A stretch of 23,252 bases of DNA from a virus (IMGVR_UViG_3300017917_004015); one strand, 5' to 3'. Counted from the stretch's first letter, positions 1 through 21,784 are shown. Notes: a model not told the origin generated them from the sequence alone. Made by a program: numbers and translations.

Positions 1-1432
1 GGGCTGTAATTCTAACAAATGGTGGGTTATTACCTGATAAACAACTAGCATTATAATAACCAGTTCTAATTCTATTACCCGGTAATTCACCGAAACCAAG
101 ATTAAAATCTACACCGGATGAAGTAACATGGCAATATGACATAATAGTACCAACTGTAGGTACAACAGTTGAACCACAAGCATTAGAACCAGATGAACTT
201 TCACCAGCCCTACAACTATCAATTCTACCAATAAGACCGTTACCAAGGTTCCAACCACACCAGTGTGTATGTCTTGAGCCAAAATTATGACCTATTTCGT
301 GAGCAATACAATAAACAGTCCAACTATACACTGAGACATCGTTTACATAAGTACTAAAAATATTACTATAACCAAAATTAGCTTGTGTACTACAAAGTAC
401 ATCAATATAGGCTATACCACCAGCATTAACTGAACGTGTACTAACTAAATGTGCTAATCTACCGTTGAATCCTGATGAGGCTTTATTAGTAGCAAAATTA
501 AATAAACTAGTTGAGTTAATATTTGTTGTTATACTAGCATAAGGGTCAGGTGTTGTATGTACAAAAATTTCCGAAATTACAATTCTAATACCTTCATTAT
601 CATATAATTGCTGTACTAAGTTAAAAACAGCAGTCATATAATTAATAGTATTTTGTACAGAACTTCCATTTTTAGTGTACATATCAAAATCACACTCAAA
701 ATAAATGGGTACGGTTTTACAACCCGTTCCACCAACAGTCATACCTAATTCACCTAATGATGAAGCTTGATTCTCCATAGTTTTAGGTAAAATAGGTTCA
801 GTCATTTGATATTTACTCTCAAGAGGTACGGCAGTATCATAAGTAATACCAGATGTTTTATTTAAAGTTTTAGGTTTTAAATCAGCTGCTTCACATTCAA
901 ATTGCATTTGCATATCTTCCTCTGATAATGAAGCATATTCATTTTTAGTACCTTTTCTTTTTGAGATGTTATATCGCTGTTTACCTTCAAATAAAATAGC
1001 AGTAAAATTATCACGATATACACTCACAACACCAAGTTCTTTATTGTTTTTTGGGTTAAAAACACGATAATGAACACCTATATCAGACTTAGTTGTTGTA
1101 TAAGTTTTATTTCTAGTACTAATTTTAAAAGGTTGGATAGTTGTTTTTCTAAACTCAACTGTTTTGATTTTACCATTTGGTTTAACAAAATCAAAAGAAA
1201 ACACATCTGGTTCATTCGTATATAAATTCTTTAAGACATTAGTATCTAATACTAGATTAAACCGTGTTTTTCGCTTTCTTTGTAAAGAATCCCTTTTTAA
1301 TGATTTTAATTCATTTGATAGTGCAGAATTTAATTTTGCATTTTCCCTGAAAAGATTATATTTTCTCGGTTGTGCATAAGCAAACGATGAAAATAAAATT
1401 AATAATGTTAGGATTTTAAAAATGTTTCTCAT
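1..1432 (-). CDS. Secreted zinc metalloprotease, reprolysin-like metzincin (M12B-like); 3' end runs off the window
   Basis: Manual minus-strand translation from ATG at 1432 is open for 477 codons to the window edge. It has a signal peptide MRNIFKILTLLILFSSFAYA|Q, a candidate cysteine switch FECEA (Cys codon 893-895), the zinc motif HEIGHNFGSRH (269-301) and a Met-turn GTIMSYCH (Met 140-142). Confidence 0.9.
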   Translation of the reverse strand, partial: MRNIFKILTLLILFSSFAYAQPRKYNLFRENAKLNSALSNELKSLKRDSLQRKRKTRFNLVLDTNVLKNLYTNEPDVFSFDFVKPNGKIKTVEFRKTTIQPFKISTRNKTYTTTKSDIGVHYRVFNPKNNKELGVVSVYRDNFTAILFEGKQRYNISKRKGTKNEYASLSEEDMQMQFECEAADLKPKTLNKTSGITYDTAVPLESKYQMTEPILPKTMENQASSLGELGMTVGGTGCKTVPIYFECDFDMYTKNGSSVQNTINYMTAVFNLVQQLYDNEGIRIVISEIFVHTTPDPYASITTNINSTSLFNFATNKASSGFNGRLAHLVSTRSVNAGGIAYIDVLCSTQANFGYSNIFSTYVNDVSVYSWTVYCIAHEIGHNFGSRHTHWCGWNLGNGLIGRIDSCRAGESSSGSNACGSTVVPTVGTIMSYCHVTSSGVDFNLGFGELPGNRIRTGYYNASCLSGNNPPFVRITA

Positions 1433-2806: not shown

Positions 2807-3865
2807 TTAATATAATCCATAATATTCTTTTCTAATATCAATTAGTAGTTTGTTAATAATTTCCATATCTACGGTATCTGGTAAATCTGACTTATCAAAT
2901 TGATTATCTATTTCATCAAGTTTTAATTGGATATCAGTTAATAATTCTTTAACATTGGTTTTACCTAATCGGATATTAATTAATTCTTGATGATTAGGTC
3001 TAAATACTTCAAAAGTTCCAGTAGTTGCTATATCATATGATACATCCACAAGTCTTTTACAATGCATTAAATTTTTTAAATCATACATTTGGTTATTTAA
3101 ATCCCATGTATATCTATCAGTATTTCTATTAGTAAGCCAAACTTGATATTGAAGATACTTTCGACAATGATGTTAGTATGCTTCAAGATTAAAATATAAA
3201 AGCCCAATAGATTGCTGACCCTTAGGTATCGATGATAGTCTAACATCATTTGATTCTTCAGTGCAAACACCTCTATAAACTAAATTAGGGTCAGTTGAAT
3301 AATACATATTATATTGGTTTTTTACATGAGGAATTCTAGCTAAACCAATATTTTCATGGTTAATATTATGAGTTTTTAAAAAATCTTTTAGTTCAATACT
3401 TTTATCATTTTCAATAATATAACAAAAGTCTAGTACATTTTTTCTTTTAGTAAAACCAGAATTTTTATCATCTAACTCCCAACGATATTTTTTATCAAGA
3501 TTTTCAGCTTTTTTAAACTGAGTTCTTGCATATCCAGCAAAAGAATTTTTACAAATCTTAGTTATAAAGATATTTCTTTTTTCTAAAATCCTATCCATAA
3601 TAGGATTTTTAATTAAAATATTTTTATCAGTCGAAAAAAGTAATTCTAACATATTAGGATTGCCCTTAGCGCAAAGTTCAATAAAACGCCCTACTTCATA
3701 AGATACATCATCGTCAGTATAGTTAATCTGAGGTTCATAACGATTACGAAGACCTAATAATTCATCTAACTTTAAAATATGTACCCTTGCATAATCAATA
3801 TCAGACGTTTCAATATTAGTTCCGTAAGCATGGGAACCTCTGACTACTTTATAGATTTCTTCCAT
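2807..3865 (-). pseudogene. RlaP/YcgL-type Pol-beta nucleotidyltransferase (PF10127-like) interrupted by a single in-frame TAA at 3173-3175
   Basis: N-terminal motif RGSHAYGTNIETSDID (GS..DxD). After the TAA the frame stays open (HHCRKYLQYQVWLTNRNTDRY...) into the 2807..3088 ORF, which carries the family-typical C-terminus YDLKNLMHCKRL...RPNHQELINIRLG...LPDTVD. Confidence 0.75.
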
Positions 3866-4278: not shown

Positions 4279-4403
4279 TTAATTTAATGTATGATTATTA
4301 AAATAAAAACGGGTTTAGTCAAAAGAAGTTTGTGTTTCATTATATGAAAATATAAGAGGATTTACACTTTCTACTTCTCGTCCTAAGACTTCCTAAACCC
4401 CTG

Positions 4404-4476
4404 TAACCCGTAGGGGATTCGAACCCCTGTTCTTCATCGTGAAAGGATGACGGCTTAACCGCTCGCCTAACGGGCT
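4404..4476 (-). tRNA. trnE: tRNA-Glu (anticodon TTC), 73 nt, CCA not encoded
   Basis: Minus-strand cloverleaf: AGCCCGT/ACGGGTT acceptor stem, GGC/GCC D stem, TCATC-CTTTCAC-GATGA anticodon arm, AGGGG-TTCGAAT-CCCCT T arm, discriminator A. Confidence 0.95.
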
Positions 4477-5572: not shown

Positions 5573-6358
5573 TTATAAATTAAAACCTCTTAAAATTATT
5601 TTTTTATGTTCATTAAAAATTTCATTGGATTCTTCTATTTCTTTTAAAGTAAACCATTTTACTTCATCTAAATCGTCAGAAGCTTTAAGTGATGTAATAT
5701 CTTTCGGTTCAACTTTAAAAACTGTTGTAATAATTCTATCTTTGGAATTTTGATAACGAATATCATTAATTTTATGACTGAATAAATACCTAGGTGAATC
5801 AACAATTAAATTTGTTTCTTCTAATGTTTCTCTAATTGCTGATTCTTCGAATGAATCATCCTCTACATCATAAAAACCTCCGCAAAGTACATATTTTTTT
5901 AACTTATTTTTATAACCTAATAAGATTTTATCTTCATATCTGATTAAAACATCCACAGTTGGTTGTCCACTAGCATAACGATGTTGGGTTGCAGCGTATA
6001 ATCCCAATCTAAAGCTATCATTAGGTAATACATCGAAATAATTTATATCAGTAGTATAGGCTAAATTTTCAACAATTTTAATATCATCATACTGAGGGTA
6101 TTTTTCTTTAATTTCGGAAATTATGCTATTTTTGTCTTTAAAAGCACTATATTTAAGTATAGTAATAGCATAATTATCTACCTCTTTAAGATAAGATTCA
6201 ATATAACAACTTGGTATTGGGAATTCAGTTGTGTTAATAGCTTCATTTGTCAATATAACGTAAAGTCTATCTGAATGTTTTTGAAAGTCTCTAAGTTTTT
6301 TGATAACTTCCATTTCATAGATAAACTGAAACCTATCAATTAGTACGTGTAATGTCAT
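5573..6358 (-). CDS. NadM-Nudix-like bifunctional protein with a degenerate N-terminal nucleotidyltransferase domain and an intact Nudix box
   Basis: Likely start MTLHVLIDRFQ at 6358 (compare GRFQPxHxGH, with HxGH absent here). It has the linker FRLGLYAA..RY...PTVDV and the Nudix box GGFYDVEDDSFEESAIRETLEETNL. Confidence 0.75.
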   Translation of the reverse strand: MTLHVLIDRFQFIYEMEVIKKLRDFQKHSDRLYVILTNEAINTTEFPIPSCYIESYLKEVDNYAITILKYSAFKDKNSIISEIKEKYPQYDDIKIVENLAYTTDINYFDVLPNDSFRLGLYAATQHRYASGQPTVDVLIRYEDKILLGYKNKLKKYVLCGGFYDVEDDSFEESAIRETLEETNLIVDSPRYLFSHKINDIRYQNSKDRIITTVFKVEPKDITSLKASDDLDEVKWFTLKEIEESNEIFNEHKKIILRGFNL

Positions 6359-6602
6359 AATTTTTTTTAATAAAATCAACTAATTCTTTTTTTGTTACTT
6401 TTATAACTTTTTCATCATTTAAAATAATATCTTGATATTTTTCAGGCACATCATAATGCGGTTTATCAGTACCAGAATGAAACCAACATTTTTTTAAACC
6501 GATACTATTACAATAACTGTGAAGTTCTTCTAATGTTGTAGCTGTTAGATGATAATATCTTTTTTTATTTTTAAATGTAGGTTTATTATCTATTAATATC
6601 AT
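6336..6602 (-). CDS. DUF4031-like small protein
   Basis: HLTATTLEELHSY...IGLKKCWFH....PHYD matches the HL.A....ELH.F...IG....WF....HYD pattern. Confidence 0.65.
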   Translation of the reverse strand: MILIDNKPTFKNKKRYYHLTATTLEELHSYCNSIGLKKCWFHSGTDKPHYDVPEKYQDIILNDEKVIKVTKKELVDFIKKNYDITRTN

Positions 6603-7390: not shown

Positions 7391-8344
7391 TTAGAATCTA
7401 ATATTACCTTGATTAACATTAAATACTGGAATACCTAATTTTAACCAAACATTTTCAAGTACCTGAAGTCTATCGTCAAAAATTACTTTTACATAATATT
7501 TATCACGAATAAAATCATCAAATAGCTGAAACTTAATTAAATCATCACTTCTATTATCACCGTCCATTCTCATGAAGAGTAGATAATCATCAGGGGAAAA
7601 TCCGCACTTAGTTAAAAATTCTCTGGTTTGTTTTTCATAATTTTCACGTCTTCCAGAAAAAAATACAATTTGAGTACCATATTTCATTTGGAAATGAAGA
7701 TATTCACGAATAGGTTCGTTAATAATGTCATTTTCAAAATCCCTATGGTACGGGTTTTTAACTTCCCTATCAAATAGACTAAGAGTGCCGTCTAAATCAC
7801 ATATAATAGCTGGTGTAAGAGTAACATCATTATGATACCTAACATCAATCTTAGGTATAAATAAAGGTATGTTATTAACAATAAAATATTCTTTAATTTT
7901 ACCAAAAATATCAAAATGTTGTTTTAGATAATCAACGTTATATTCTAGTCCTTCTCTTTTTCGAAGATTCTCTAATGCTACTTCATAAGGTTGTTCAATA
8001 AAAATAAATTCAATATCGCAACGGTGGTTATATCTATTGATAATATTATCAATAGATTTCTTATATACATTATATTTATGGTCAGGACCAAAAAATGTTG
8101 TGTCAAGAATAACATTATTACCAGCATTTAACTGATTAAGAATCAGTTCATGTTGGATATCATTAATATTTTCTTCGATTTTTTTAAAATCTTTTCGGTT
8201 ACTGTATGTATTTAAATCTAAACCTAATAGAGTTCGTATATCATCACGGTTAACTCTGAACGTTCTATCATTTTCAGATACAAGTTTTTTACTATAAGTT
8301 GTTTTACCACATCCAGATGGTCCAATTAATACTGTTAATTTCAT
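7391..8344 (-). CDS. pnkp1: Polynucleotide 5'-kinase / 3'-phosphatase (T4 PseT / Pnkp1 type)
   Basis: P-loop GPSGCGKTT and RVNRDDIR in the kinase domain; HAD motifs DLDGTL, FFSGR and FDDR in the C-terminal domain. Confidence 0.92.
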   Translation of the reverse strand: MKLTVLIGPSGCGKTTYSKKLVSENDRTFRVNRDDIRTLLGLDLNTYSNRKDFKKIEENINDIQHELILNQLNAGNNVILDTTFFGPDHKYNVYKKSIDNIINRYNHRCDIEFIFIEQPYEVALENLRKREGLEYNVDYLKQHFDIFGKIKEYFIVNNIPLFIPKIDVRYHNDVTLTPAIICDLDGTLSLFDREVKNPYHRDFENDIINEPIREYLHFQMKYGTQIVFFSGRRENYEKQTREFLTKCGFSPDDYLLFMRMDGDNRSDDLIKFQLFDDFIRDKYYVKVIFDDRLQVLENVWLKLGIPVFNVNQGNIRF

Positions 8345-8604
8345 AATATATCAATGTTTGTAAAGTTTAAATCATAATCATATTTGTCAGTTCTAACTAA
8401 TATAGCGTGGTCTTTTAAATCAGACCATTTCATATTATTGTATAACCACTTAGCATTTTCAAGTGTATTATTTAACATTTTATTAACATCTTTGTTATTA
8501 ATATTTTCAAGTAAAACATTATTACTATAAAGTCTATGTCTAACTATTACCTCAGAATGTACTTTATAAACCTCCCCATTTGAGAATCTAAAAAAAATGA
8601 ACAT
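8341..8604 (-). CDS. Hypothetical protein (87 aa) inside the RNA repair cluster
   Basis: ORF track; 4-bp overlap with pnkp1 and 1-bp overlap with the upstream ORF. Confidence 0.6.
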   Translation of the reverse strand: MFIFFRFSNGEVYKVHSEVIVRHRLYSNNVLLENINNKDVNKMLNNTLENAKWLYNNMKWSDLKDHAILVRTDKYDYDLNFTNIDIL

Positions 8605-9038
8605 TAGTTTTTAAAAGAAATTGATGTTTGTATAAGTGTTTTTAAATATAATTTATCAAGTAATTGCGTTTTAAAATAGTTATATGTTAATTTAAATTTA
8701 AAAACTGACATATTTGTATTAATTAAACTTTTAATATTAGCAGCGAAATCATTAAACTTCTTATGACTAATATCGGTGTTTTCTTTCAAAAAATTATGCA
8801 ATTCATAATCATTAGCTTCAAGTAATTCGTTAATAAAATTAGCTTTATAACTTTGATTATAATACATTTTTTCGGTAGCTTGATAAATTTGGTCAAGTAG
8901 GTCAGTAATAAATTCTAAACTGACATACTTAAGCCCTTGATATTCAATTTCAGGCTTAAAAAAAGATTCAAAAAGATAGAAAATTAACCTATACTCTAAA
9001 TATTCTTTTTTAACCTCGGACATATTTTTTATCATCAT
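8604..9038 (-). CDS. Hypothetical protein (144 aa) inside the RNA repair cluster
   Basis: ORF track; 4-bp overlap with the ligase stop. Confidence 0.6.
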   Translation of the reverse strand: MMIKNMSEVKKEYLEYRLIFYLFESFFKPEIEYQGLKYVSLEFITDLLDQIYQATEKMYYNQSYKANFINELLEANDYELHNFLKENTDISHKKFNDFAANIKSLINTNMSVFKFKLTYNYFKTQLLDKLYLKTLIQTSISFKN

Positions 9039-10246
9039 AATCTTTTATCCAATGTTTCTTTTTCAAGTTTTTCCTGTAAAATACATTTAGTAAACAATTT
9101 TGTATAATCTTGGTTACTAGGATTAACATCTTTATATGGGATATTTAATAATGCGTTTCCAAGTTTAAAATCATTTATCGAAGCTTTAACTTTACTATTT
9201 ATACTTCTCTTTTCAAAGATATTATCATAGTTAAGATTAAAATCCAATCCATACACTAAAGTAAGATATTTGTTATTTCTAACTTTAAAACAACCGGGTA
9301 TTTCATGGTCAATAGCTTGCATTTGATTAAGGGCTTTAACCATTACACCCTCCATATTTTCTGATACGAGAGAATTGTAATACTTATAAGCTAAATCGAC
9401 AGAATTATCAAAATTATTCAAATCTAATGAACACTGGATATCATCAGATACAATACTAAATGTGTCTATTGTTCTAGTATTTATTTCAGTCCCATCAGTA
9501 TTAACTATTTTTAAAATACTAAAAGGTTTAAAATATGGTTTACCTTGTGTAGAAAAAATATCTAGCTGTTCATCGAAAATATTAATAGATTTTTCTTTAT
9601 CATTAAGATTATATATTATTACACTGTCAATACTTTCATACTGACGTACAATATGATGTTTATATTTCTTAATTAATTCTTCTCTACTTAATGAAGTAAC
9701 ATCATTAATATATTGTTTATAAAGTGGTTGGTTTTTAATTTTTTCTAGTTTACCCAATAAACTACTATTTTTAAGTAAATTTAGATGTGTTTTTTGAGTA
9801 TAAAGATAACTAAGAAAATCATATTCAATTAAATTAGCACCTAAAATAGACCAAGGTAAAAGTTCAGATTGAATTAAAATTATTTCAGCATTAGGATATA
9901 AATTAAACATTTTCTCATGAAGTGGTTTAACAGCTTCAAATAAATCATCTTTATTTAAATTTCTCCTAGAAATATAATAACCGTTTCTTGAAACAAACTT
10001 AGTTTCAGCTAGATTTTTATTTAGATAAATATCACAATATGAACCCATATATTTAGGTTGTACCAAAACATTAGTTATACCATGATTTTTGTAATACAAA
10101 AGTGCTTTGTAAAGACTTTCAATTTCATTTCGGTCTTTATCCTTAGGTGCGGGACTGATAGTAGGTGAAAAATGGTTAATTTTTTCAAGTCCAGCATAAT
10201 GTACCCTAGCCTCTATTTTTTCTCTATCGTATTCGTGTTGTTTCAT
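9035..10246 (-). CDS. rnl: RNA ligase of the bacterial Pnkp/Rnl (Hen1-activated) type
   Basis: Motif I QPKYMGS, SRNGY, ELLPWS, motif IV EGVMVK, motif V KVRNNKYLTLVYG (compare KCRGREYLRIIYG in bacterial Pnkp ligase domains); adjacent to hen1. Confidence 0.88.
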   Translation of the reverse strand: MKQHEYDREKIEARVHYAGLEKINHFSPTISPAPKDKDRNEIESLYKALLYYKNHGITNVLVQPKYMGSYCDIYLNKNLAETKFVSRNGYYISRRNLNKDDLFEAVKPLHEKMFNLYPNAEIILIQSELLPWSILGANLIEYDFLSYLYTQKTHLNLLKNSSLLGKLEKIKNQPLYKQYINDVTSLSREELIKKYKHHIVRQYESIDSVIIYNLNDKEKSINIFDEQLDIFSTQGKPYFKPFSILKIVNTDGTEINTRTIDTFSIVSDDIQCSLDLNNFDNSVDLAYKYYNSLVSENMEGVMVKALNQMQAIDHEIPGCFKVRNNKYLTLVYGLDFNLNYDNIFEKRSINSKVKASINDFKLGNALLNIPYKDVNPSNQDYTKLFTKCILQEKLEKETLDKRL

Positions 10247-11583
10247 TTTGTTATTACTACTCCTTGTGTTGGTGTTACAATTTTATTATTTGATAAAAGC
10301 TGGTCACCTATTTGAATGAAATCAATTTTATATGTAGTATCTTTGAAGATATCATTAATATACTCCCTAAAATCGTTTTGACTTAGTTCAAAAACATGGT
10401 CTTCACGTCTTTTAGCTGTATTGAGGTCTTCACCAATAAAATAAAATTGATTGAAATCAGCATCAGGTGTTGTTATAACTAACTTCTCAAAGTTAATGTT
10501 TGTTACTATATCAAGTATTAATTTTTTAGATACATCTATTTCATTATGTTCAATAACTTCAGTAATGATAATATTATACACCTCATCTGAATTATATAAA
10601 TCTGATATATTTTTAAGATGAATTAAATTACTACTATTCAGAACTTTATGTTTATATCTAGTTTTAAATAAATTAATTCGTTCTTCAGTTTTTTCATCCA
10701 AATCAAAGGCATAATACTTTTTATTAAAACCAAGATTACATAAGAATTTACGAACATACTTTAATTCTCCGCAACCGATATCAATAATATCCCTATCGAG
10801 ACCAATTTTTTCTGAAATACTATTCAACCGACAACCATGTGTATCTTCAAAATGAAATTTAAGTACTGGATTTGGAGTATCTACAAAATAATTCTCAAGT
10901 CTAGTCTTAACCTTTTCAAAAATAGTTTGTGTAAAAATAGCTCTTTTGATGAAAAGGTAAAACATAAAATAAGGTAAGTTATCAATATTTGTTAGTACCT
11001 TAACATACTTATTAACTAACTGTTCTTCAACAACAAAACTTTGTTCGTTAGTAATTGTTGTCATAAGACAAACCAATGAAACAACATTAAAAGTTTCAAA
11101 TATATTTTTACCTGTATATTTTAGTGAATACAAATTACCTTTAATTTGATTAACATCAAGATTTGGAATATATCGACTTAGAATGTATTTACCATCTCTA
11201 TACCAATTAGAGTCAATATAAAATAAAGGTATTTCAATTGTTGCCTCTTCTTTATCTAACTCAAGATTAGTTTTATTTAACCAAGATATTGTCTGTGAAT
11301 AATAAGTATGTTTATCAACTAAAAATTGAGGGAATAACTCTGAAATAAAATTTAAAGCTGCTTGTGGATTACAATAAGACTGGAAATCAATTAAATTATC
11401 AGAGTATTCAGCATAGATATATTTAAAGGTATCTATAAATATAACATTATATTCATTATCAGACTCTACTACACCAAATAAATTACCATTTTTATAGGTT
11501 TTGGTATAAACACCGAAATCAGAATTCGGGTTCTTATTTAATAGGCTAAGTAAATTAGGATTTTTACTTTTAATATTAATCAT
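10243..11583 (-). CDS. hen1: Hen1 RNA 3'-terminal 2'-O-methyltransferase with N-terminal ligase-activating domain
   Basis: N-terminal LSLLNKNP (compare YLLHKHP), SAM motif DIGCGE, metal motif EVIEH, TTPDADFN and REDHVFE (compare RHxDHxFEW). Confidence 0.9.
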   Translation of the reverse strand: MINIKSKNPNLLSLLNKNPNSDFGVYTKTYKNGNLFGVVESDNEYNVIFIDTFKYIYAEYSDNLIDFQSYCNPQAALNFISELFPQFLVDKHTYYSQTISWLNKTNLELDKEEATIEIPLFYIDSNWYRDGKYILSRYIPNLDVNQIKGNLYSLKYTGKNIFETFNVVSLVCLMTTITNEQSFVVEEQLVNKYVKVLTNIDNLPYFMFYLFIKRAIFTQTIFEKVKTRLENYFVDTPNPVLKFHFEDTHGCRLNSISEKIGLDRDIIDIGCGELKYVRKFLCNLGFNKKYYAFDLDEKTEERINLFKTRYKHKVLNSSNLIHLKNISDLYNSDEVYNIIITEVIEHNEIDVSKKLILDIVTNINFEKLVITTPDADFNQFYFIGEDLNTAKRREDHVFELSQNDFREYINDIFKDTTYKIDFIQIGDQLLSNNKIVTPTQGVVITK

Positions 11584-12064
11584 TATTTTCGATTGTTTTA
11601 CAGTGTATTCGATTAACCCTTACTTGAATATTTCTACTAGGTATACTTAATATACAATTTTGTTCAACTTCTAAAAACATATCATTGTCAAGTTTTACTG
11701 GTATTTTATCAGAAAAATCAAGGTCAATAATAATTCCATAACCAAAATCATTAAGTTCTTTTTGAGTATAAGAATCTACTAGACGTTTTTTCTTATCGTC
11801 ATCAAATGTAGCTGATACAAAATCTTCAATTGTAACTCTTTGATAAAGTTCTTTTTCGTCCATATATAAGTTTGACGCATATTTTTGTCGTATTTCATCT
11901 TCAATAACCTTGAGATTATTTTGATTGCTTTCTACATTTTTAAGTATTTCCTTAATAGCCTTCTGTTTCCTTTCAAACATGATTTCATCAAGCTTATTAA
12001 CAAGCTTTTCCATGAAATATTCATTATTAATTAAATTATCAATTTGTTCGTTGTTTAGATTCAT
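11576..12064 (-). CDS. Hypothetical protein (162 aa)
   Basis: ORF track; 8-bp overlap with the hen1 start. Confidence 0.6.
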   Translation of the reverse strand: MNLNNEQIDNLINNEYFMEKLVNKLDEIMFERKQKAIKEILKNVESNQNNLKVIEDEIRQKYASNLYMDEKELYQRVTIEDFVSATFDDDKKKRLVDSYTQKELNDFGYGIIIDLDFSDKIPVKLDNDMFLEVEQNCILSIPSRNIQVRVNRIHCKTIENND

Positions 12065-12159: not shown

Positions 12160-12468
12160 TTAATATTTAAGTTGTTTTTCATATGTTTCTATTTCTTGAA
12201 AAACTTTTTCGAATTTAACACATTCAGATAAAAATTCTTTTTCGGTGATGCAAGTATCATACCATTCACCTAGTTGTTTATAAATTGAATATTTATTTTT
12301 AAAAAGTTTTTCCATTTTACTATAAAATTTAGTTTTAAACTTACAAACCATTACAAGCTGATGTTCATTACCAGTCTGTAATGTAATTAACCTTTTTTGA
12401 GGGTCATTTGTTACACCAATTTTAAAAGAATTTAGATTTTTTTTCTGTATCAAATAAACATATTTCAC
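12160..12468 (-). CDS. GIY-YIG nuclease, T5orf172/MUG113-like
   Basis: YVYLIQ....FKIGVTNDPQKRLITLQTGN ... E ... GEWY. Confidence 0.8.
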   Translation of the reverse strand: MKYVYLIQKKNLNSFKIGVTNDPQKRLITLQTGNEHQLVMVCKFKTKFYSKMEKLFKNKYSIYKQLGEWYDTCITEKEFLSECVKFEKVFQEIETYEKQLKY

Positions 12469-12483
12469 ATAAGTAAAATACGT

Positions 12484-13326
12484 CTATTCAATCCACATAG
12501 CTTTGTGTCCATCAACATTAAAGAAACAATCGGTATCAAAAACAGGTTCTTTAAGAATATACTTTTTAAAATTAATATAAAATCTATCGCCTCTACAATG
12601 TTTCAAGGTTGTATAATTACCATAATCATAAATATAACCCGGTGGTATTTTAGTTATTTTAAAATGTTTAATTTTTACATTATATTCACTAAAAAATAAT
12701 TTATCCTTAAGATTTAACAAAGTACCAAAATTTAAATTAGAGGCGTTAATTATAATCTCATCTGAATAAACGCCTTCAATAATAAAATTTTCACTTTCTA
12801 ATGTATCAACCAATTTTTGAGTAATAGACTCTTGAATTTTAACTATTCTTGCTGGATTAAACTGACCTAAAAAATATTGTCTAAGTTTTTTTGATTTACC
12901 AAGAAAATCATGTATATCTAGTTCTCTCATAAATGTTAACCAAGGTACAGTATCTTTAAATTCAAGTACCTTTTGGGTTATATTCCAATTTGATTCAGAA
13001 AAATCAATACTAAGATATTCCTGATTTTCTAATGGTTTAAATTCTTTTTTCTTAAAATCATTATTAAACTGATATGAGTTTAATTTTTCTTTAAAATCAT
13101 ATTCATTCATAAAATTTTTAAATTTTACTAATGCTTCATCTCGATGTGCTGATGTATCAGTAAATTTACTGGTGTAATCTTTTACATCTTCAATAGCTTC
13201 TTTAAGCCATTCGAATTCTTTTGACTTAAACATTTGTTCAATATAGTAATCATACAAATGGTATAAAGGTATATTTAAATTATATTCCTTACAAAGAAGA
13301 TGTACTTGTTTATCTGTTAAATTCAT
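12484..13326 (-). CDS. Hypothetical protein (280 aa), possible polymerase-palm-like motifs
   Basis: YLSIDFSESN, SKKLRQYFLG and YSDEIII; the function is not established. Confidence 0.55.
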   Translation of the reverse strand: MNLTDKQVHLLCKEYNLNIPLYHLYDYYIEQMFKSKEFEWLKEAIEDVKDYTSKFTDTSAHRDEALVKFKNFMNEYDFKEKLNSYQFNNDFKKKEFKPLENQEYLSIDFSESNWNITQKVLEFKDTVPWLTFMRELDIHDFLGKSKKLRQYFLGQFNPARIVKIQESITQKLVDTLESENFIIEGVYSDEIIINASNLNFGTLLNLKDKLFFSEYNVKIKHFKITKIPPGYIYDYGNYTTLKHCRGDRFYINFKKYILKEPVFDTDCFFNVDGHKAMWIE

Positions 13327-13367
13327 AATACTAGGTTTTTCATTAAAAAGATAAAATAAATAAAATG

Positions 13368-14270
13368 TTACTTAATTTTATCAAGAATCTCATTAACCGA
13401 ATTAATACGATAATAACCAACATTAAAATTCTTATTGTGTTCAGCTGTTAAGAGAAAAGTTGTTATACCAGCATTAGTTAATTCTATAAAATTTTCATAT
13501 CTATCATCAATAAAATACTCTATACCAGCCTTTTTAGCGGCATCAACTTTACTCATCTCCAATCCTACTGAATATACAGGTGCAACAGGGAAATTGTGTT
13601 TATCTAACCAATCCTCAGTTATTTTAACTGGTACAGACCTTGATGTGATATAACAAGTAGGGGTAAATTTTAATTCATTACCATTAAATTTTGGTGTTAG
13701 ATTTTCCCAAAAACTAATAGGTAATTCATTTAATCTTTGATACATTTGTCTATCAAAATACCAATGACTTGGAATAGGTAATTTAAATTTATCACAATAT
13801 TGACTTACAAAATTATTCAAGCAATCATCAATGTCAAGTCCTATTTTAGGTATTGATAAGTATGTTTTTTTCCTATTATCAAAATTAGGGTGAATTTTGT
13901 AATATTCTTTTATGAAGGCGGCATTTGTTAATAAATGGTCAATATGTAATAATGTACTTTCTTCATCATAATCATAACCTTTCTTAATTTCAAGAAGATG
14001 TCTCTCTAATGAATTTAAAACCTCCGTCCAAGGCATACCATTTCTCCAATTATCAGCACCAGATACTACTTCACAGATATAATCAGGATTATCTACAACA
14101 CCCTTTTCAAATCTAATAATTTCATTAGTTTTCTTATCTCTTAAATATGTTACCGTATATTTATTAGCCCCGTAAGCTAAGACCTGTGCAATACCTTCAA
14201 TAGTACTATTGGGTATTAAATTGATTGGTAATTTTCCATTATTAAACCTGAGTCCTTTTTTCTCTGACAT
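13368..14270 (-). CDS. Fusion of dATP/dGTP diphosphohydrolase (DUF5664 / PF18909-like) and HAD 5'-nucleotidase-like domain
   Basis: N-terminal GLRFNNGK..LIP...AQVLAYGANKY...NWRNG....NSLERHL...DEESTLLHIDH; C-terminal GLDIDD, YITSR, K, FIDDRYEN. Confidence 0.8.
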   Translation of the reverse strand: MSEKKGLRFNNGKLPINLIPNSTIEGIAQVLAYGANKYTVTYLRDKKTNEIIRFEKGVVDNPDYICEVVSGADNWRNGMPWTEVLNSLERHLLEIKKGYDYDEESTLLHIDHLLTNAAFIKEYYKIHPNFDNRKKTYLSIPKIGLDIDDCLNNFVSQYCDKFKLPIPSHWYFDRQMYQRLNELPISFWENLTPKFNGNELKFTPTCYITSRSVPVKITEDWLDKHNFPVAPVYSVGLEMSKVDAAKKAGIEYFIDDRYENFIELTNAGITTFLLTAEHNKNFNVGYYRINSVNEILDKIK

Positions 14271-14694
14271 AATTTTCTAAAATTTCTGTATATTTTTTAT
14301 CTTGTCTAATATACAAAAATAAAAGAAAAGGTACGGCTACTTTTTCTTCTTTTCTATGTCTTGTTATTAAAAATTTAAATAAGTGATAATTACTTTTCAC
14401 CATTTCATCTAATAATTCAATAGAAGATACATTATATTTTTCACGAATTTTCTTAGTCTTTCTTTCAAATTCTTTTAAATCAATAATAACTTTCTTTGGG
14501 TTTTTTTTCCATTTATCAGCAAATAAATCATATAACTCTGCAATTTCTTTATCATCTTTTTTTATAACTTTATTAAGTCTCTTATTAGATAAAGGATTGT
14601 AAATGAAATAATATTCAGACCCTTCCTTTATTACTTTACCGGTATATGGGGTATTATTAGGGTTTCTTTTTGAGAATAATTCTTTATCTTCCAT
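14242..14694 (-). CDS. Hypothetical basic protein (150 aa)
   Basis: ORF track; overlaps both neighbours. Confidence 0.55.
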   Translation of the reverse strand: MEDKELFSKRNPNNTPYTGKVIKEGSEYYFIYNPLSNKRLNKVIKKDDKEIAELYDLFADKWKKNPKKVIIDLKEFERKTKKIREKYNVSSIELLDEMVKSNYHLFKFLITRHRKEEKVAVPFLLFLYIRQDKKYTEILENYVREKRTQV

Positions 14695-16495
14695 TATATT
14701 TGTTTTTTAGTTTTTTAATTAAATCGTCGGTGATATCTAACCTAGATATTTCATTTAAATTTATTTTTTCATTATCAATAACTGCTTTAATAACACGGTC
14801 CTTTTCTTTAATCAAAAAATTTATATCTTCATCAATAGTATTAGCAACTAAAACTTTATTAACTACTACTGAATTTTTTTGTGATATTCTATGCGCTCGT
14901 GAATAACACTGTTCATTAACTGATGGAACATAAGATAATGTTATATCAAATATAGTTGATGATTTAGTTAACGTTAAACCAGCATTACCTGATTGTTTAG
15001 TTAAAAATAAGTTCATTAACTCATTACTATCACTTTGAAATAAATCAACTTTATTTTGTCTGCTTATCATGTCAGTATCGTCGCCAGTATATAACGCTGA
15101 ATTGTCTTTAAACTCTTCATATAAAGCATTTAAACATCCTTTATATTCATCAAAAACTAAAACTTTTTGATTTTCTCTATTATATAAAGGTATAATATCC
15201 TTCATATATTTAAATTTTATACTCGAAGTAAATTGTCTTAGTCTTGTTAAAATACTTAATACATATACTTTTTTATTATCAGTATCTTTTAATGAAAAAC
15301 TATCCCAATCAAATTGTTTTAGAGCATTTTCAATGTCTTTGTATTGACGAAGTTCCTCATCCGTCATTTCTATTATAACATCATTAACAATCTTTTCGGG
15401 TAAATCATGTAAAACCTGTTCTTTTTTAACTCTAAACATTAAACCATTCATTTTTTGGTTTAACATTTCTAAGTCAGGCTCACCTATTTGTTCATATTCT
15501 TTTTTCCTTGCATTATATCGTAAACCACAATAAGTTTCATAGAAATATACTTTATTACGAATTTCAGATGGACATAATATTTTAAAAAGTACATATAATT
15601 CAGTAATTCTACTAGGTATAGGGGTACCAGTAAGTAAAAACTTATATTTAAATTTTTGAGTTTCTATGAAATTAATAATATTTTCAGTCCTATTAGAATC
15701 GGTATTTTTAATATAATGTGCTTCATCTAAAATAACAACATTTACATCTTTAATCATATAAGTATCTATGATTTGATTGTACATTTCTTCAAATTTTTTA
15801 GTATTTTTACTAAAAAAATCATAATTTACTATTATATATTTAGCTTCATCAATAGTAGAAACTTGTTCCTTTTTATTTAAACCTATGACATAGACTTTTT
15901 TATGTTTAGTAAACTTAATAACTTCTTTTTGATAATTCATCCTAAGATAGGATGGTACTATAACTAACACTTTATTAATATCCTGAGCCATTTCGCAAGC
16001 CAATATACTAGTAATTGATTTACCAGTTCCCATATCCATAGCTAATAACCCATCTAAAGTATGAAGTAAAAATTTAGAACCAATGCATTGGTATTTATAT
16101 GGGGTTACTCCTTCTTCAAGAAAAGATTTATAATAATTAATATCTATATCTTGATTTAAATCTTTTATTAAAATATTCTGTTTTTGTTTTTGTAATTCAT
16201 TTGATAAATTATCAGCTAAAATACTTTTTTCACGGTTCTTTTTTTTACAAAAAGTTAAAAATTTTTCACGTTCATTCAAATCTTCAAAAACAAAATTAGT
16301 ATCTTTACTATTTCTATATATACCAATAATAAGATGATATAAACCATCTCTACTTACTATATAACAACCAAGCCCAACATCATAACTTCTTTTGTTTCTA
16401 TCAATCGTTTTTAAATTACTAAAAAAGGTTGGGTTGTTTCCGGGTGTTATAATATTGTATCGTCTCCCATTTTTTTGTATTTTTACTGTATACAT
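14684..16495 (-). CDS. SNF2-family helicase/ATPase (SMARCAL1/HARP-like)
   Basis: MDMGTGKS (I), DEAHYIKN (II), LTGTPI (III), GNAGLTL (V), QCYSRAHRISQ (VI). Confidence 0.9.
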   Translation of the reverse strand: MYTVKIQKNGRRYNIITPGNNPTFFSNLKTIDRNKRSYDVGLGCYIVSRDGLYHLIIGIYRNSKDTNFVFEDLNEREKFLTFCKKKNREKSILADNLSNELQKQKQNILIKDLNQDIDINYYKSFLEEGVTPYKYQCIGSKFLLHTLDGLLAMDMGTGKSITSILACEMAQDINKVLVIVPSYLRMNYQKEVIKFTKHKKVYVIGLNKKEQVSTIDEAKYIIVNYDFFSKNTKKFEEMYNQIIDTYMIKDVNVVILDEAHYIKNTDSNRTENIINFIETQKFKYKFLLTGTPIPSRITELYVLFKILCPSEIRNKVYFYETYCGLRYNARKKEYEQIGEPDLEMLNQKMNGLMFRVKKEQVLHDLPEKIVNDVIIEMTDEELRQYKDIENALKQFDWDSFSLKDTDNKKVYVLSILTRLRQFTSSIKFKYMKDIIPLYNRENQKVLVFDEYKGCLNALYEEFKDNSALYTGDDTDMISRQNKVDLFQSDSNELMNLFLTKQSGNAGLTLTKSSTIFDITLSYVPSVNEQCYSRAHRISQKNSVVVNKVLVANTIDEDINFLIKEKDRVIKAVIDNEKINLNEISRLDITDDLIKKLKNKYNGR

Positions 16496-16510
16496 AAATA
16501 ATTATATATC

Positions 16511-16521
16511 ACTAATATAAC
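16511..16521 (-). promoter_or_regulatory. Putative promoter element GTTATATTAGT upstream of the helicase
   Basis: Identical to 4479-4489; lies in the short intergenic gap. Confidence 0.35.
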
Positions 16522-17210
16522 TATGTTTTCTTTGATTTAATAATTTGTCTTAGTTTTTCAGTTACTAGTTCATCAACAATATCTTTAAACATACTTCTTA
16601 ACGTATCTTTTGAAAAAAAGTTTTCAGTAAGATATTTATTAACAGCATTTGTTATATCAACAGGATTAGAATTTAGAATTTGTGGTTGATAAACGGGTTG
16701 TTGAATTGGAATTGGTTGTTGATAAACGGGTTGTTGATAAGATTCAACATAAACAGGTTGTTGAGATTTTATGTGTTGTTTTTGTATTTTGTTAATTTCA
16801 TTTCTACTCATTTCACCTGAAGCAAATTTCATCCTAATTGATTCGTCAATAGGTATAAACGATGGTGGTGCTGAATTATATTGTGGTTGTTGGGTTTGTT
16901 GTTGGGTTTTTAAATATTCAGCATAAAAATCAACATTTGGTTCATCATTAAATGTATCAAAATGTGGTTGAAAATTATCAAAAGATGGTTCTCTATAACC
17001 AGAATTATTAGTGAATCCGTTAATATTAGGTTGAATATGCATATCAGACATAACTGGAGCATTTTCATTATCACTAAATCTAGGTATATTTGGTAATTGG
17101 ACTCCTTTATTTTCAAGCCTTTCAGAGGCTTCAACTATTGTATTCATCTTATTAGCAAATCTAGCTAATTTATCAGGTGAAACTTGTTTTAGTATATTAA
17201 TATTATCCAT
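16521..17210 (-). CDS. Hypothetical Q/P/N-rich low-complexity protein (229 aa)
   Basis: ORF track; QQPVY repeated and a poly-Q/T tract. Confidence 0.65.
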   Translation of the reverse strand: MDNINILKQVSPDKLARFANKMNTIVEASERLENKGVQLPNIPRFSDNENAPVMSDMHIQPNINGFTNNSGYREPSFDNFQPHFDTFNDEPNVDFYAEYLKTQQQTQQPQYNSAPPSFIPIDESIRMKFASGEMSRNEINKIQKQHIKSQQPVYVESYQQPVYQQPIPIQQPVYQPQILNSNPVDITNAVNKYLTENFFSKDTLRSMFKDIVDELVTEKLRQIIKSKKT

Positions 17211-17231
17211 ACTATTTTTTAATAAAATACG

Positions 17232-17762
17232 TTATTTTGGTGTTACTTTATAAATTATTTGCTTCATAGATTTATTGTATAGTATGTTTAATTTTTTTCT
17301 ATTTGTGCTAACAAAGTCAATTGATTGGTCATATTTTTGGATAGTTTTAGTGAATTTCAATATTTTATCCAATCTAAACATACGCCATCTAATAGCATCT
17401 CTGGGTCTTCCAGATTTAAGTGTATATGAATAGTCATTTCTTAACCAACCATAAGCCACTAAATTACCACTATTATTATATCCTACACACCAAAATTCAA
17501 CGTCTCGAACCCCAACTAAACCATCATATGGTGCCGGGTCATAGTATATTTTAATAACAGTTCTATCTTTCATTGATTTTATAATACGATTTAAAACTTG
17601 CTGACCCTTATAGGCGGCGGCACGTCTTTTTTCAGTACTATAGTTATTTTTTTTCTTTTCAGGTTCTTGATTTTGATTAGGTAAACGAGTATCTATACTA
17701 GAGTCATCATCCTCAGTTAATAAATTTTTTACAATATATTTTTTTAACTGTTTATTCAACAT
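17232..17762 (-). CDS. Stand-alone WYL-domain protein
   Basis: IKIYY......R.VE...VG......AYGW...WRMFRLDKI fits the WYL pattern I.I.Y...R.V.P...R.FRLDRI; no HTH seen. Confidence 0.65.
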   Translation of the reverse strand: MLNKQLKKYIVKNLLTEDDDSSIDTRLPNQNQEPEKKKNNYSTEKRRAAAYKGQQVLNRIIKSMKDRTVIKIYYDPAPYDGLVGVRDVEFWCVGYNNSGNLVAYGWLRNDYSYTLKSGRPRDAIRWRMFRLDKILKFTKTIQKYDQSIDFVSTNRKKLNILYNKSMKQIIYKVTPK

Positions 17763-18000
17763 CGTTATATTCTCTATTACCTTTTGAAAATTCGTTCATA
17801 GAAATCATTTTATTCCTAGAAATAATATCCATAAGATTACCAGTTTCACCAGTTGCGGGGTTTTCATCTTTACCTAATGGTGATATTAAATCAGGCGAAT
17901 TTTCATCGTATTCATTTATATCGTTTTGATATTTATTAGATGCTATCATGTTTGGTCTAATAACATCACCAATAGTCCTAACTTTTGAAATTTCAGCCAT
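17752..18000 (-). CDS. Hypothetical protein (likely start MAEISK at 18000)
   Basis: ORF track 17752..18015; ATG at 17998-18000. Confidence 0.55.
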   Translation of the reverse strand: MAEISKVRTIGDVIRPNMIASNKYQNDINEYDENSPDLISPLGKDENPATGETGNLMDIISRNKMISMNEFSKGNREYNDVE

Positions 18001-18001
18001 A

Positions 18002-18235
18002 TTAGTTATTATCAAATATAGAATTTATTTTATTTTCATATATATCTAAACTATTAGTGGTTGTTTGGATATTTTCTTGGGCTGGTGGTTGTTGAATTTC
18101 ATTAACCACAGGTTTTTCTAGGTAATGAAAAGGTATTGATTGAGTATTATCATACTCACATAAATAATTCAACCTCTGTAATTGTTGAGCATATTTATTT
18201 TTATCAAAAGCTGGTTTAGATTTAAACTTTCTCAT
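18002..18235 (-). CDS. Hypothetical protein (77 aa)
   Basis: ORF track; preceded directly by the 16-bp motif. Confidence 0.55.
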   Translation of the reverse strand: MRKFKSKPAFDKNKYAQQLQRLNYLCEYDNTQSIPFHYLEKPVVNEIQQPPAQENIQTTTNSLDIYENKINSIFDNN

Positions 18236-18236
18236 T

Positions 18237-18272
18237 TTTTATTATAAATAGTATTTTTCTATTTATTATAAA
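18237..18272. promoter_or_regulatory. Divergent promoter region with back-to-back CTATTTATwwTAAA motifs
   Basis: ACTATTTATAATAAAA on minus (18237-18252) before the ATG at 18235, and CTATTTATTATAAA on plus (18259-18272) before the ATG at 18279. Confidence 0.55.
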
Positions 18273-18278
18273 CAATAT

Positions 18279-19079
18279 ATGGCTAATAAACGCAAATATG
18301 ATAATAAAGTGTATCCGGATAAAGTTGGTAATGAAAGAGTTAAACAAATTCTTGATATGGCCGATGAGAAGAATTTATACTTACCTAAGGGTGTTAGTAT
18401 TGACGATATAACTTTAGCTGTTTTAAATGAATTAAAAAGTGGTTCATTAAGTATTGTTTCTAAACAAACTAAAAATATAATACCTGTTTATCTTTTTGGT
18501 TTAGAAAAATGGAGTCAATTTGAAAAAACTTGGGAAATAACAGATGAAGACCAAAACGTTTCCTTCCCCATTGCGGTTTTAGTTCAAAATGATACTGTTT
18601 TTGGTAGTAGGTATGGTGAAAATAGACACGTTCTATCATATAAAAAAACTTATACTTATTTGGAAGTACCAACTGAGGATGAAATAGGTCGTTTAGGGTA
18701 TGATATTTATAAAATACCATTAGAAACGCCTGTAGATATTACATATGATATAGCATACATTACTTATTACTCAAAAGAAAGAAATAATATTGAACAAGAA
18801 TTTATTAGAAAATTCTCTGATTTTCAACATTATATAGTAGTTAATGGTCATTATATGCGTATTTCATTGGAAGATTCATCTAACGAAAATGAAGTTGATA
18901 TTGATGTAAATAATGTTTATATAAAAAAATTTAATATAAAAATAAAAGGTTTCACATTAGATGAAAATGAATTTGAAAAATACAGGTCTATCGAAAAAGT
19001 AATTAAAATAACGGAAATAAATGATACTGAGATTTCTAGGGAATCCATATCAATTAAAGATTATTATAAAAGAAGTTAA
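18279..19079 (+). CDS. Probable virion tail completion / sheath-terminator-like protein (T4 gp15-like, tentative)
   Basis: Size and sequence pattern (P.....R...PVDITY...F.......NGHYM.I.L...K.F.IKIKGF.LDE.EF) resemble proteins I recall so annotated in large myophages; unverified. Confidence 0.45.
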   Translation: MANKRKYDNKVYPDKVGNERVKQILDMADEKNLYLPKGVSIDDITLAVLNELKSGSLSIVSKQTKNIIPVYLFGLEKWSQFEKTWEITDEDQNVSFPIAVLVQNDTVFGSRYGENRHVLSYKKTYTYLEVPTEDEIGRLGYDIYKIPLETPVDITYDIAYITYYSKERNNIEQEFIRKFSDFQHYIVVNGHYMRISLEDSSNENEVDIDVNNVYIKKFNIKIKGFTLDENEFEKYRSIEKVIKITEINDTEISRESISIKDYYKRS

Positions 19080-19589
19080 ATGTTTTTGAATATATTTTTA
19101 CATAAAACGTTAAAAAATGATGGTGAATATGATATACAACCTACCGATGAATATATTATTGGTACATTATCATCTACAACATTCTCTTTGATTAGTGTGC
19201 CACCTAATACAAATAACAATGAAACTATTAATATACAATTAAGTGGTATTACATCCTCAAAATTAGATAATATATTAGATTATAATAATGAATATATACA
19301 AGATTTTATTTTAGAAGAAACTGATGATTTTATAGTTTATGTAGTAGATAATATCACATACAAAACATTTAAAAACGATAACTTAACTGTTTATTACATA
19401 AATAAAAATATTGATATATTTACTGATTCTTTATTATATAAAAATAATGATAAGTATTACCCTTTAAGTAAAAAAACGATATCAAATTTAAACATTAACA
19501 GAAATAATAAATCTGTATTAGAGGATTTTTACAAATTAACAACCACAAATAACCTTGATGATGTTATGGATTTATTTTCAACTATTTAA
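19080..19589 (+). CDS. Hypothetical acidic protein (169 aa)
   Basis: ORF track; abuts the previous stop. Confidence 0.6.
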   Translation: MFLNIFLHKTLKNDGEYDIQPTDEYIIGTLSSTTFSLISVPPNTNNNETINIQLSGITSSKLDNILDYNNEYIQDFILEETDDFIVYVVDNITYKTFKNDNLTVYYINKNIDIFTDSLLYKNNDKYYPLSKKTISNLNINRNNKSVLEDFYKLTTTNNLDDVMDLFSTI

Positions 19590-19603
19590 TTTAAAACACA
19601 AAT

Positions 19604-20491
19604 ATGATAGGTAGTACTGGTATAATTAAACCTTCAACAGTTAGCGTAAATGATATTGAAATACTTTATAGTTATTCTAGTGATAGAAGTACTGAACCTT
19701 CTAATTTCATATTATTAGATGCTAACTTACTTATTAAGGAACGTTTTTTGAGTGATAATTCAGTTGAAAAAATTCCCGGTATGTATTTATTGAACTTACC
19801 TTCAGACATTTTCAATGAAGTAGGATTTTATTCTTTATATATTCGACCTAAACAAATAAAAACTAATATTGTAGATTGTGGTGTTTTAAGTTCATTACCT
19901 AATGTAAAGGGTATAGTTTTAAATATTGAAGACTTCGCTAATGACACTGATAAAATATTACAAGGTGGTTTATGTGGTTTTAGAGTTGAGTACTTAAATA
20001 ACGATGGTTCGTTGATTAATAATAAACATACTATTGTAACTTGGTCTAATAGATGTGAGGCTATCAGCCAAAATATAAATAACACTTCTCAAAAAAATAT
20101 TTCTTATAGATTTACTGATTCAGGTAATTTTTTATTTTTAACAGTAAATCCTTCGACAAACCCTTCGGTTCAACCATCTGTACAACCTAACATTGGTGTA
20201 GCAAATCAACAAATAATATTAAGTAATACATATTTTGACCCGGTACTAATTGATATTGAATTATCTGAATATGATATTGATAAAATAGCTTTAGGTATTT
20301 TTGGTGAAAAAACTCTAAATATTGAGACTGGTGTAGAAAATGTTTATACCAAAGATAGAGAAATTTATAAACAAAGAACTATATTTGATATCAAAGATGA
20401 AACTGGTAATCCATTATATAAAGTAGCTCAAAGTAATACAACAATAGACACTAGTGAAACTTGGGATACAATTAATGAAAATGTTATCTAA
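19604..20491 (+). CDS. Hypothetical, probably structural, phage protein (295 aa)
   Basis: ORF track; beta-rich composition; co-oriented with the gp15-like gene. Confidence 0.6.
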   Translation: MIGSTGIIKPSTVSVNDIEILYSYSSDRSTEPSNFILLDANLLIKERFLSDNSVEKIPGMYLLNLPSDIFNEVGFYSLYIRPKQIKTNIVDCGVLSSLPNVKGIVLNIEDFANDTDKILQGGLCGFRVEYLNNDGSLINNKHTIVTWSNRCEAISQNINNTSQKNISYRFTDSGNFLFLTVNPSTNPSVQPSVQPNIGVANQQIILSNTYFDPVLIDIELSEYDIDKIALGIFGEKTLNIETGVENVYTKDREIYKQRTIFDIKDETGNPLYKVAQSNTTIDTSETWDTINENVI

Positions 20492-21320: not shown

Positions 21321-21784
21321 TATATTACGTTATTATTTTTATTATATATTTTATTTATTAAACTTTTTTTAACAGTATTAGGTAATTTATCAACAGGTAG
21401 TTTATCAATTAAATTAACTAATACATTATAAGTGTCTGAAAATTTACTTTTACTTTCATTTATAAGACTTTCAATTACGTTAATAGCTAATAATAAATCT
21501 AAATTAGTTATTTTTTCATCTAAAACAACACCATAATCTTTATCTAATACAGTATCTTCTCTAAAAAATACACCATTACCAACACTATATGGTGTTAAGT
21601 AAGGGTCTACACCTTGTTTAATTTCTTGTGAAATTTTTTCAGAATCACCTTGGACAGATACTTCACTAGATACTGGTTCAGCTTTATCAGTTTTAAATTT
21701 AAAATCAGGTGTTAAAACTGTATCATAATTATAATCTCGTTCAGATAGTTTCTTTTTTAAATATTTTTTTATATTATTTTCCAT
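21320..21784 (-). CDS. Hypothetical protein (likely start MENNIKK at 21784)
   Basis: The ORF-track start (21802) is TTG; ATG at 21782-21784. Confidence 0.6.
   Translation of the reverse strand: MENNIKKYLKKKLSERDYNYDTVLTPDFKFKTDKAEPVSSEVSVQGDSEKISQEIKQGVDPYLTPYSVGNGVFFREDTVLDKDYGVVLDEKITNLDLLLAINVIESLINESKSKFSDTYNVLVNLIDKLPVDKLPNTVKKSLINKIYNKNNNVI

Follow-up and report, generated by a model that had tools for sequence, protein, structure and literature searches.

A Pnkp1-Rnl-Hen1 RNA repair gene set in a tailed phage, with a probable role in countering RNA-cutting host nucleases

The window considered in this work is a stretch of 23,252 nt from the viral contig IMGVR_UViG_3300017917_004015, which measures 87 kb in total. 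Between positions 7391 and 11583, its minus strand carries the genes of Hen1, Rnl, and Pnkp1, the proteins of an RNA repair system known from bacteria, in a single chain of overlapping genes that also contains two small open reading frames (ORFs), orf144 and orf87. We consider that the chain probably encodes a functional phage version of the Pnkp1-Rnl-Hen1 system, and that its most likely use is to undo, and then to block, the cutting of tRNA or rRNA by host abortive-infection nucleases. Within the searches reported here, this is the first complete three-gene form with a T4-type Pnkp1 to be found in a phage; Hen1-based repair in phages is itself already known.

An earlier annotation, made from the sequence alone (below, the first-pass annotation), had described hen1, a Pnkp-type ligase, and a T4-like kinase/HAD phosphatase in one overlapping chain. 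The ORF list and the Pfam and PDB matches bear out this description, and the extent from Hen1 to Pnkp1 coincides exactly with the limits given at that time; it did not include orf144 and orf87, the pair of small genes that separates rnl from pnkp1. The genes of the chain, together with orf162 at its head, are as follows.

11576-12064, minus strand: orf162, an ORFan heading the chain, 162 aa; overlaps hen1 by 8 nt
10243-11583, minus strand: Hen1, 446 aa; N-terminal ligase-activating domain and C-terminal metal-dependent RNA 3'-terminal 2'-O-methyltransferase
9035-10246, minus strand: Rnl, 403 aa; stand-alone Pnkp-type ATP-dependent RNA ligase
8604-9038, minus strand: orf144, an ORFan between rnl and pnkp1, 144 aa
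8341-8604, minus strand: orf87, a small gene without an annotated function, 87 aa; 4-nt overlap with pnkp1
7391-8344, minus strand: Pnkp1, 317 aa; T4-type 5'-kinase and HAD 3'-phosphatase

These six genes run from 12064 down to 7391 with successive overlaps of 8, 4, 4, 1, and 4 nt, and most genes of the window lie on the minus strand. The G+C content ranges from 21 to 33% across the whole window, and that of the repair block (24-27%) equals the background; therefore, the block is not a recent import. Searches with orf162 returned only itself among 5.8 billion proteins. Similarly, orf144 has no match in Pfam, PHROG, or NCBIfam, returned only itself among 1.84 billion representative proteins, and, like the other insert of the window, is unlike the inserts found at the same junction in the loci compared with it, namely those of bacteria and of the IMG/VR contigs L005 and L006. 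The matches of orf87 are marginal, with phrog_17928 at 8e-5 and ASFV_360 under its cut-off. A scan for promoters and terminators gave results at the level expected by chance in such AT-rich DNA.

The identity of the three enzymes is supported by Pfam profiles for all of them, by NCBIfam for Hen1 and Rnl, and by PHROGs for Pnkp1, which supply the profile-based confirmation that the first-pass annotation had proposed. In Hen1, the Pfam domain Hen1_N covers residues 2-232 (3e-47), and the NCBIfam family TIGR04074, which corresponds to the methyltransferase half of bacterial Hen1, covers residues 264-445. When all PDB sequences were searched with phmmer, its best match was 4XRP_C (2e-101, residues 2-446). 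The S-adenosylmethionine motif D268-IGCGE is intact, and the metal ligands E342, E345, H346, and H396 are kept. In Rnl, PNKP_ligase (9e-21) is the sole Pfam domain of the 403-aa protein, and the best PDB match, 4XRP_B (2e-84), extends over residues 7-403 without large gaps. Against TIGR04075, Rnl aligns only with positions 484-850, the ligase third of bacterial Pnkp, and scores 65.7 bits against a cut-off of 750. It keeps K65 in KYMG, E299-G-V-M-V-K304, and K321, and motifs IV and V are present.

Pnkp1 contains the Pfam domains AAA_33 and HAD_PNKP (1.4e-28) and no Metallophos domain, and it matches the polynucleotide kinase family phrog_505 at 2.8e-54. Its best PDB match is 4XRP_A (2e-36), compared with 1.5e-17 for T4 Pnk. 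The kinase residues are kept (P-loop G8..K14-T15, D34, R37, and R130, the last of which aligns with T4 R126), as are those of the HAD phosphatase (D183-x-D185 in DxDGT, S230, K271, and D290-D291). The residues were compared with 65-80 Bacteroidota orthologs, a position being counted as conserved if it was shared by at least 95% of the bacterial orthologs; 74 of 90, 81 of 95, and 51 of 68 such positions are retained across the three proteins, the last figure being that of Pnkp1. At the level of residues, therefore, the intact catalytic motifs ascribed to all three enzymes at first reading were confirmed.

These observations support the assignment of the predicted proteins as orthologs of the three-component system of Capnocytophaga gingivalis, in which Pnkp1 is a homolog of T4 Pnkp and Rnl corresponds to the ligase domain of Pnkp (Wang, Selvadurai and Huang 2015, PMC4411300). 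The first-pass annotation had described this system correctly. Repair of ribotoxin-cut RNA by the C. gingivalis proteins requires all three of them, gives immunity to recurrent damage, and yields a 2'-O-methylated junction that resists cleavage (PMC4411300). The window proteins share the three domain make-ups of its heterohexamer (4XRP, 4XRU) and align with it end to end at about 30-45% identity; from homology to 4XRP, they may be expected to assemble in the same way. A predicted complex of Rnl with Pnkp1, built from our own alignments, scored 0.00, which gives no verdict and is evidence neither way. In contrast to C. gingivalis, where hen1 lies apart from pnkp1-rnl, the window copy is carried by a phage with all genes in one chain, has two ORFans between rnl and pnkp1, and branches outside all sampled bacterial copies.

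Two other repair systems resemble the window module in part. The two-component Pnkp/Hen1 system follows the same logic of healing, methylation, and sealing and has homologous Hen1 and ligase modules; however, its Pnkp fuses the kinase, metallophosphoesterase, and ligase, whereas the window has a separate T4-like protein of HAD type and a ligase standing alone. No single polypeptide combining these three activities is encoded in the window. The other system is T4 Pnk (PseT) with Rnl1, in which an end-healing enzyme of the same family is likewise encoded by a phage, with presumed restoration of tRNA. It differs in having a ligase of Rnl1 type and no methyltransferase, while the ligase of the window is of the Pnkp type, which depends on Hen1. 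The T4 RNA ligase family was not found among the window ORFs scanned and Hen1 is present, so that the gene content is not that of the Rnl1 pathway. T4 Pnk and Rnl1 serve as a counter-defense against the anticodon nuclease PrrC, and because T4 has no methyltransferase, the tRNA that it repairs can be cut again.

Phylogenetic trees place all three proteins with the three-component clade and apart from their two-component or free-standing homologs, which answers the comparison with bacterial systems suggested in the first-pass annotation. The three-component clade of the Hen1 tree has a support of 100; within it, L006, L005, and the window diverge one after another, and all 40 bacterial copies form a single clade that excludes them. 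In the Rnl tree, the bacterial clade has a support of 98 and the clade with the window, L005, and L006 a support of 93. The Pnkp1 of the window stands on the bacterial Pnkp1 side of a split, supported at 98, from free-standing phage Pnk and fused forms, but on a very long branch. Since the viral copies lie outside the bacterial clade, the window trio represents a viral lineage that is old and separate rather than recently captured. Their basal position permits the hypothesis that this T4-like hybrid system is of phage origin, although the same pattern could equally be produced by long-branch attraction.

The bacterial relatives were collected by a Hen1 scan with one genome per species, and operons were counted around the best 80 of 264 Hen1 relatives. 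Nearly all of these 80 are from Bacteroidota (Capnocytophaga, Flavobacterium, Taibaiella, Dysgonomonas, Bacteroides, Niabella, and Apibacter are among the genera), and none exceeds 43% identity. The genes hen1, rnl, and pnkp1 occur together in the order of the window at 66 of the 80 loci; the C. gingivalis group, in which hen1 is located separately, is the exception. A number of bacteria and viral contigs have unrelated inserted genes where rnl meets pnkp1 or hen1 meets rnl, a pattern that the two ORFans of the window fit. In several genera of Bacteroidota (L058, L061, L063, L072, L110, and L057), the inserts at these junctions encode 105-309 aa, which suggests that the repair operon contains a hotspot for accessory genes. 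Among the viral contigs, a GNAT acetyltransferase and an HNH endonuclease are wedged into the cassette at L006:7983-12148, and a gene resembling TnpB adjoins rnl at L005:7974-12826.

Phage relatives were sought in 50,697 phage records and in IMG/VR with an alignment-based Hen1 scan, which was needed because a scan with the single protein found no relative. Hen1 together with a ligase is present in only five of the phage records (Xanthomonas phage XacN1, the Stenotrophomonas phages CM1 and RAS14, and the Vibrio phages RYC and vB_VpaM_sm033), and Hen1 occurs on at least 32 IMG/VR contigs, mostly of 70-530 kb. The first-pass annotation had implied that such repair is rare in phages, which proved to be overstated: the pairing of PNKP and Hen1 had been noted for XacN1 in 2018 (PMC5852040), the only paper in the searchable literature to tie Hen1 to a phage. 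A paper on Borgs mentions a putative Pnkp1-Rnl-Hen1 in archaeal elements. The survey of phage genomes that had also been proposed thus revealed a recurrent type of repair, of which the complete three-gene form with a T4-type Pnkp1 was found in the window alone.

The commonest phage-borne form is a Pnkp of 780-940 aa, which adjoins hen1 on about 21 of the 32 IMG/VR contigs; its kinase, metallophosphoesterase, and ligase domains were checked by Pfam for one contig, L007. In another form, a Hen1-Pnkp1 fusion of about 710-725 aa lies beside a stand-alone Rnl (L002:5089-7242 in RYC, L003:5137-7317 in vB_VpaM_sm033, and L016:7995-10124). Public records label this fusion merely as 'polynucleotide kinase'. 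The closest viral copies to the Hen1 and Rnl of the window are those of L005 and L006, where Rnl also stands alone and no T4-type Pnkp1 was found, even though the 335-kb L006 is rated complete and has terminal repeats. All five isolate phages resemble the window in having hen1 beside a stand-alone ligase of the Rnl type; however, they share only 24-29% identity with it and fall on different branches in the Hen1 phylogeny, and the Vibrio phages carry the fusion (about 720 aa) in place of separate proteins. No T4-type Pnkp1 was found in XacN1 or RAS14. At the XacN1 locus (L001:2120-5194), the alignment of ORF197 (404 aa) covers almost the whole of Rnl, so that the protein looks ligase-only; the paper names it 'PNKP', and the record has it as a 'metallophosphoesterase'. 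Ahead of hen1 lies a further gene, for a 164-aa 'predicted kinase', and a HAD phosphatase was not found in the XacN1 genome. Version 4 of PHROGs has no family for Hen1 or Rnl, and an end-healing enzyme of the Pnkp1 family, kin to T4 Pnk, occurs in 1,924 phage records. Taken together, these results suggest that large phages carry Hen1-based repair recurrently, in three architectures, and that public records mostly leave it unannotated.

That the DNA is of phage origin is indicated by a virion gene and by synteny with viral contigs.

18279-19079, plus strand: T4 gp15-like tail terminator, a virion gene, 266 aa; assigned from Atlas clusters and an AlphaFold2 fold match

The nearest Atlas clusters of this protein are 100% viral, and PF16724, the T4 gp15 family, is found on 12-17% of their members. 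An AlphaFold model built from 30 homologs (predicted local distance difference test of 73.6) matched the T4 portal-neck-tail complex (E 1.2e-8), T4 gp15 (4HUH and 4HUD, about 3e-7), and the phage P1 tail (E within 1e-8 to 6e-7), followed by many other phage tail terminators, with moderate template modeling scores of 0.4-0.55; contractile injection systems are among the weaker matches. These structural matches came from the fold search alone, the family profile having no match among PDB sequences. Synteny with the IMG/VR contigs L120 (37 kb) and L121 (91 kb) extends over positions 12160-23161, at 30-56% protein identity. Strong PHROG matches among the neighboring genes are an SNF2 helicase (6.7e-82) and phrog_37590 (2.2e-73). 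Neither the two genes that follow the terminator nor the large genes on the contig of the relative had a PHROGs match, Atlas gave nothing for a 295-aa protein, and a DNA search with the 4.2-kb repair block against the 50,697 phage records found no match. Exact-pattern searches in IMG/VR and in JGI metagenomes did not recover the contig.

The tail terminator and the synteny, as read within the 23-kb window, support its assignment to a tailed phage (Caudoviricetes); genes for capsid, portal, and terminase were not seen in this part of the contig. The first-pass annotation had allowed for a bacterial chromosome in place of a phage, and the same two lines of evidence favor the latter. It is very improbable that the DNA comes from a low-GC member of Bacteroidota, whether from its chromosome, from a tailocin locus, or from a mobile element of another kind. 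Such an origin would agree with the nearest relatives of the trio, which are all chromosomal genes of Bacteroidota, with the occurrence of tail terminator folds in contractile injection systems, and with the fact that gene content was read from only the 23-kb window of the 87-kb contig. Against it stand the homologs of the terminator on 69 IMG/VR contigs and its exclusively viral clusters, the 11 kb of synteny with viral contigs, and the window itself, in which no housekeeping genes were found and several proteins are ORFans.

The comparison with L121 also indicates how the module is carried. The M12B protease of the window has a homolog in that contig (40% identity), and so has the gene at 12160-12468. 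Between these two homologs, L121 has 13.7 kb of large genes that are unrelated; the corresponding interval of the window holds the repair genes together with RlaP, tRNA-Glu, a NUDIX gene, DUF4031, and DUF5662. Because the shared flanks hold unrelated genes in L121, the repair block is regarded as accessory cargo of a variable region. Three features of this region are listed below.

2-1432, minus strand: M12B (reprolysin-like) metalloprotease, running off the left edge; homolog L189:2822-4105, 40% identical
2807-3865, minus strand: RlaP (PF10127), an RNA 3'-end nucleotidyltransferase; Pfam RlaP 5.9e-15, and phrog_388 spans both halves
4403-4476, minus strand: tRNA-Glu(UUC), identified with ARAGORN; downstream of the repair genes and co-directional with them

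As a homolog of the M12B gene occupies the matching place in a related viral contig, it is a conserved gene of the phage group. The RlaP and tRNA genes share a co-directional block with the repair genes, and RlaP genes also lie nearby, within 8 kb, in about 16-17 of the 80 bacterial loci. RlaP extends damaged RNA 3' ends by one or two nucleotides and has been proposed to restore nucleotides taken off by nucleases of the RloC type; T4 NrdC.11 belongs to the same family (PMC12776372). The window protein is about 40% identical to, and collinear with, the 350-aa RlaP proteins encoded beside bacterial hen1 operons. A single in-frame TAA at 3173-3175 replaces a Ser conserved in the homologs, and the frame downstream of it is still conserved. 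The TAA may have arisen by a recent nonsense mutation or through an error of assembly, or it may be a site of read-through. Recoding of the stop codon was considered and rejected, since a lone TAA stands at a conserved Ser (TCA to TAA, one change) and the other genes of the window need no read-through.

From these gene identities, their intact motifs, and their place in phage DNA, we infer that the proteins form a complex, are enzymatically active, and serve in counter-defense. The substrate would be RNA cut by a transesterifying nuclease, which leaves 2',3'-cyclic phosphate and 5'-OH ends. The kinase of Pnkp1 would phosphorylate the 5'-OH end, and its HAD phosphatase would clear the 2',3'-cyclic or 3'-phosphate. 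Hen1 would then methylate the 2'-OH of the 3'-terminal nucleoside, and Rnl, activated by the N-terminal domain of Hen1, would seal the break. The mended junction, being 2'-O-methylated, should resist recutting at that site, and translation could continue through infection as cutting by the host is undone and blocked. By analogy with T4, counter-defense against tRNA-cutting host nucleases appears to be the best-supported reading. A more detailed version of it is possible, and we put it forward tentatively: the module would reseal host or phage tRNAs cut by the HEPN-type or anticodon nucleases of the host (such as PrrC- and RloC-like enzymes, or the collateral activity of Bacteroidota Cas13b) and would leave them 2'-O-methylated and thus lastingly resistant, RlaP would restore the nucleotides excised by RloC-type enzymes, and the basal place of the three viral copies would mean that the hybrid system took shape in phages before Bacteroidota domesticated it.

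Several observations weigh against a counter-defense function. The in vivo substrate is unknown even for the bacterial system (PMC4411300). The operon is interrupted by two ORFans, and the RlaP gene is broken by its TAA. Pnkp1 is the most diverged member of the trio, with 17 of 68 conserved positions altered, including the Arg matching T4 R122, and it stands on a very long branch that makes its placement less sure. In addition, the contigs of L120 and L121, both incomplete, have no match to Hen1_N or HAD_PNKP; the nearest viral relatives thus lack the trio in their available sequence, and it is therefore dispensable for the phage group.

Part of this evidence is also what a decaying passenger would leave behind, that is, a module acquired whole and now partly inactive under weak selection. 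The long branch of Pnkp1, the TAA in RlaP, the ORFans inserted in the operon, and the absence of the trio from the closest viral relatives all agree with such decay; however, the three frames are open and of full length, every catalytic residue is kept, the gene overlaps are preserved, and a composition fully adapted to the phage implies long retention, so that we give this explanation little probability. The missing link to a host nuclease would instead suit a role in general RNA maintenance, in which translation RNAs hurt by the ribotoxins of competitors or by stress are mended to keep the infected cell productive. The same role has been proposed for bacterial systems, whose complex is viewed by its authors as a generic repair machine of low substrate specificity (PMC4411300). 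As infections are short, exposure to outside ribotoxins should be a weak selective force. Moreover, the only well-studied phage RNA repair system, that of T4 Pnk and Rnl1, is a counter-defense, and maintenance seems rather unlikely here. The module might also serve the processing of the phage's own RNA, such as tRNA halves, intron-bearing tRNAs, or self-cut RNAs to be resealed or marked. The tRNA-Glu gene would be in keeping with this, but the window yielded no gene for a nuclease or a splicing endonuclease, and bacterial tRNA introns splice themselves with no need of a ligase, which makes such a use improbable. Counter-defense against host nucleases thus appears, in our assessment, to be the most probable function of the module.

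Other genes of the window were noted in passing. The NUDIX proteins encoded at 5573-6379 and 20484-21320, both on the minus strand, are each extended at the N-terminus by about 140 aa with no assigned family; the gene at 5573-6379 lies in the repair block beside DUF4031 and DUF5662, and the best PDB match of its product is a weak one, to an ADP-ribose pyrophosphatase (1e-6). A 300-aa protein encoded at 13368-14270 on the minus strand has the N-terminal domain of the phage dATP/dGTP diphosphohydrolase (PF18909, 8e-22) and matches phrog_37590 over its full length (2e-73); no gene of the PurZ type was seen in the window. The terminator opens a short plus-strand block of three genes (18279-20491), and the helicase gene lies at 14684-16495 on the minus strand. 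A helicase scan of IMG/VR returned only two loci, both distant. On 42 of the 69 IMG/VR contigs with a terminator homolog, a homolog of the SNF2-type helicase lies within a few kb of it, which points to a conserved helicase-terminator neighborhood across a broad phage group.

Defenses that cut tRNA are now a major class of bacterial immunity, and T4 Pnk with Rnl1 is almost the sole phage answer to have been studied. If the function proposed here is correct, methylation of the mended junction would let a phage repair kit not only reverse the cut but also protect the same site from another. A phage-host pair would offer a simple genetic system in which to study what Hen1-type repair does in nature.

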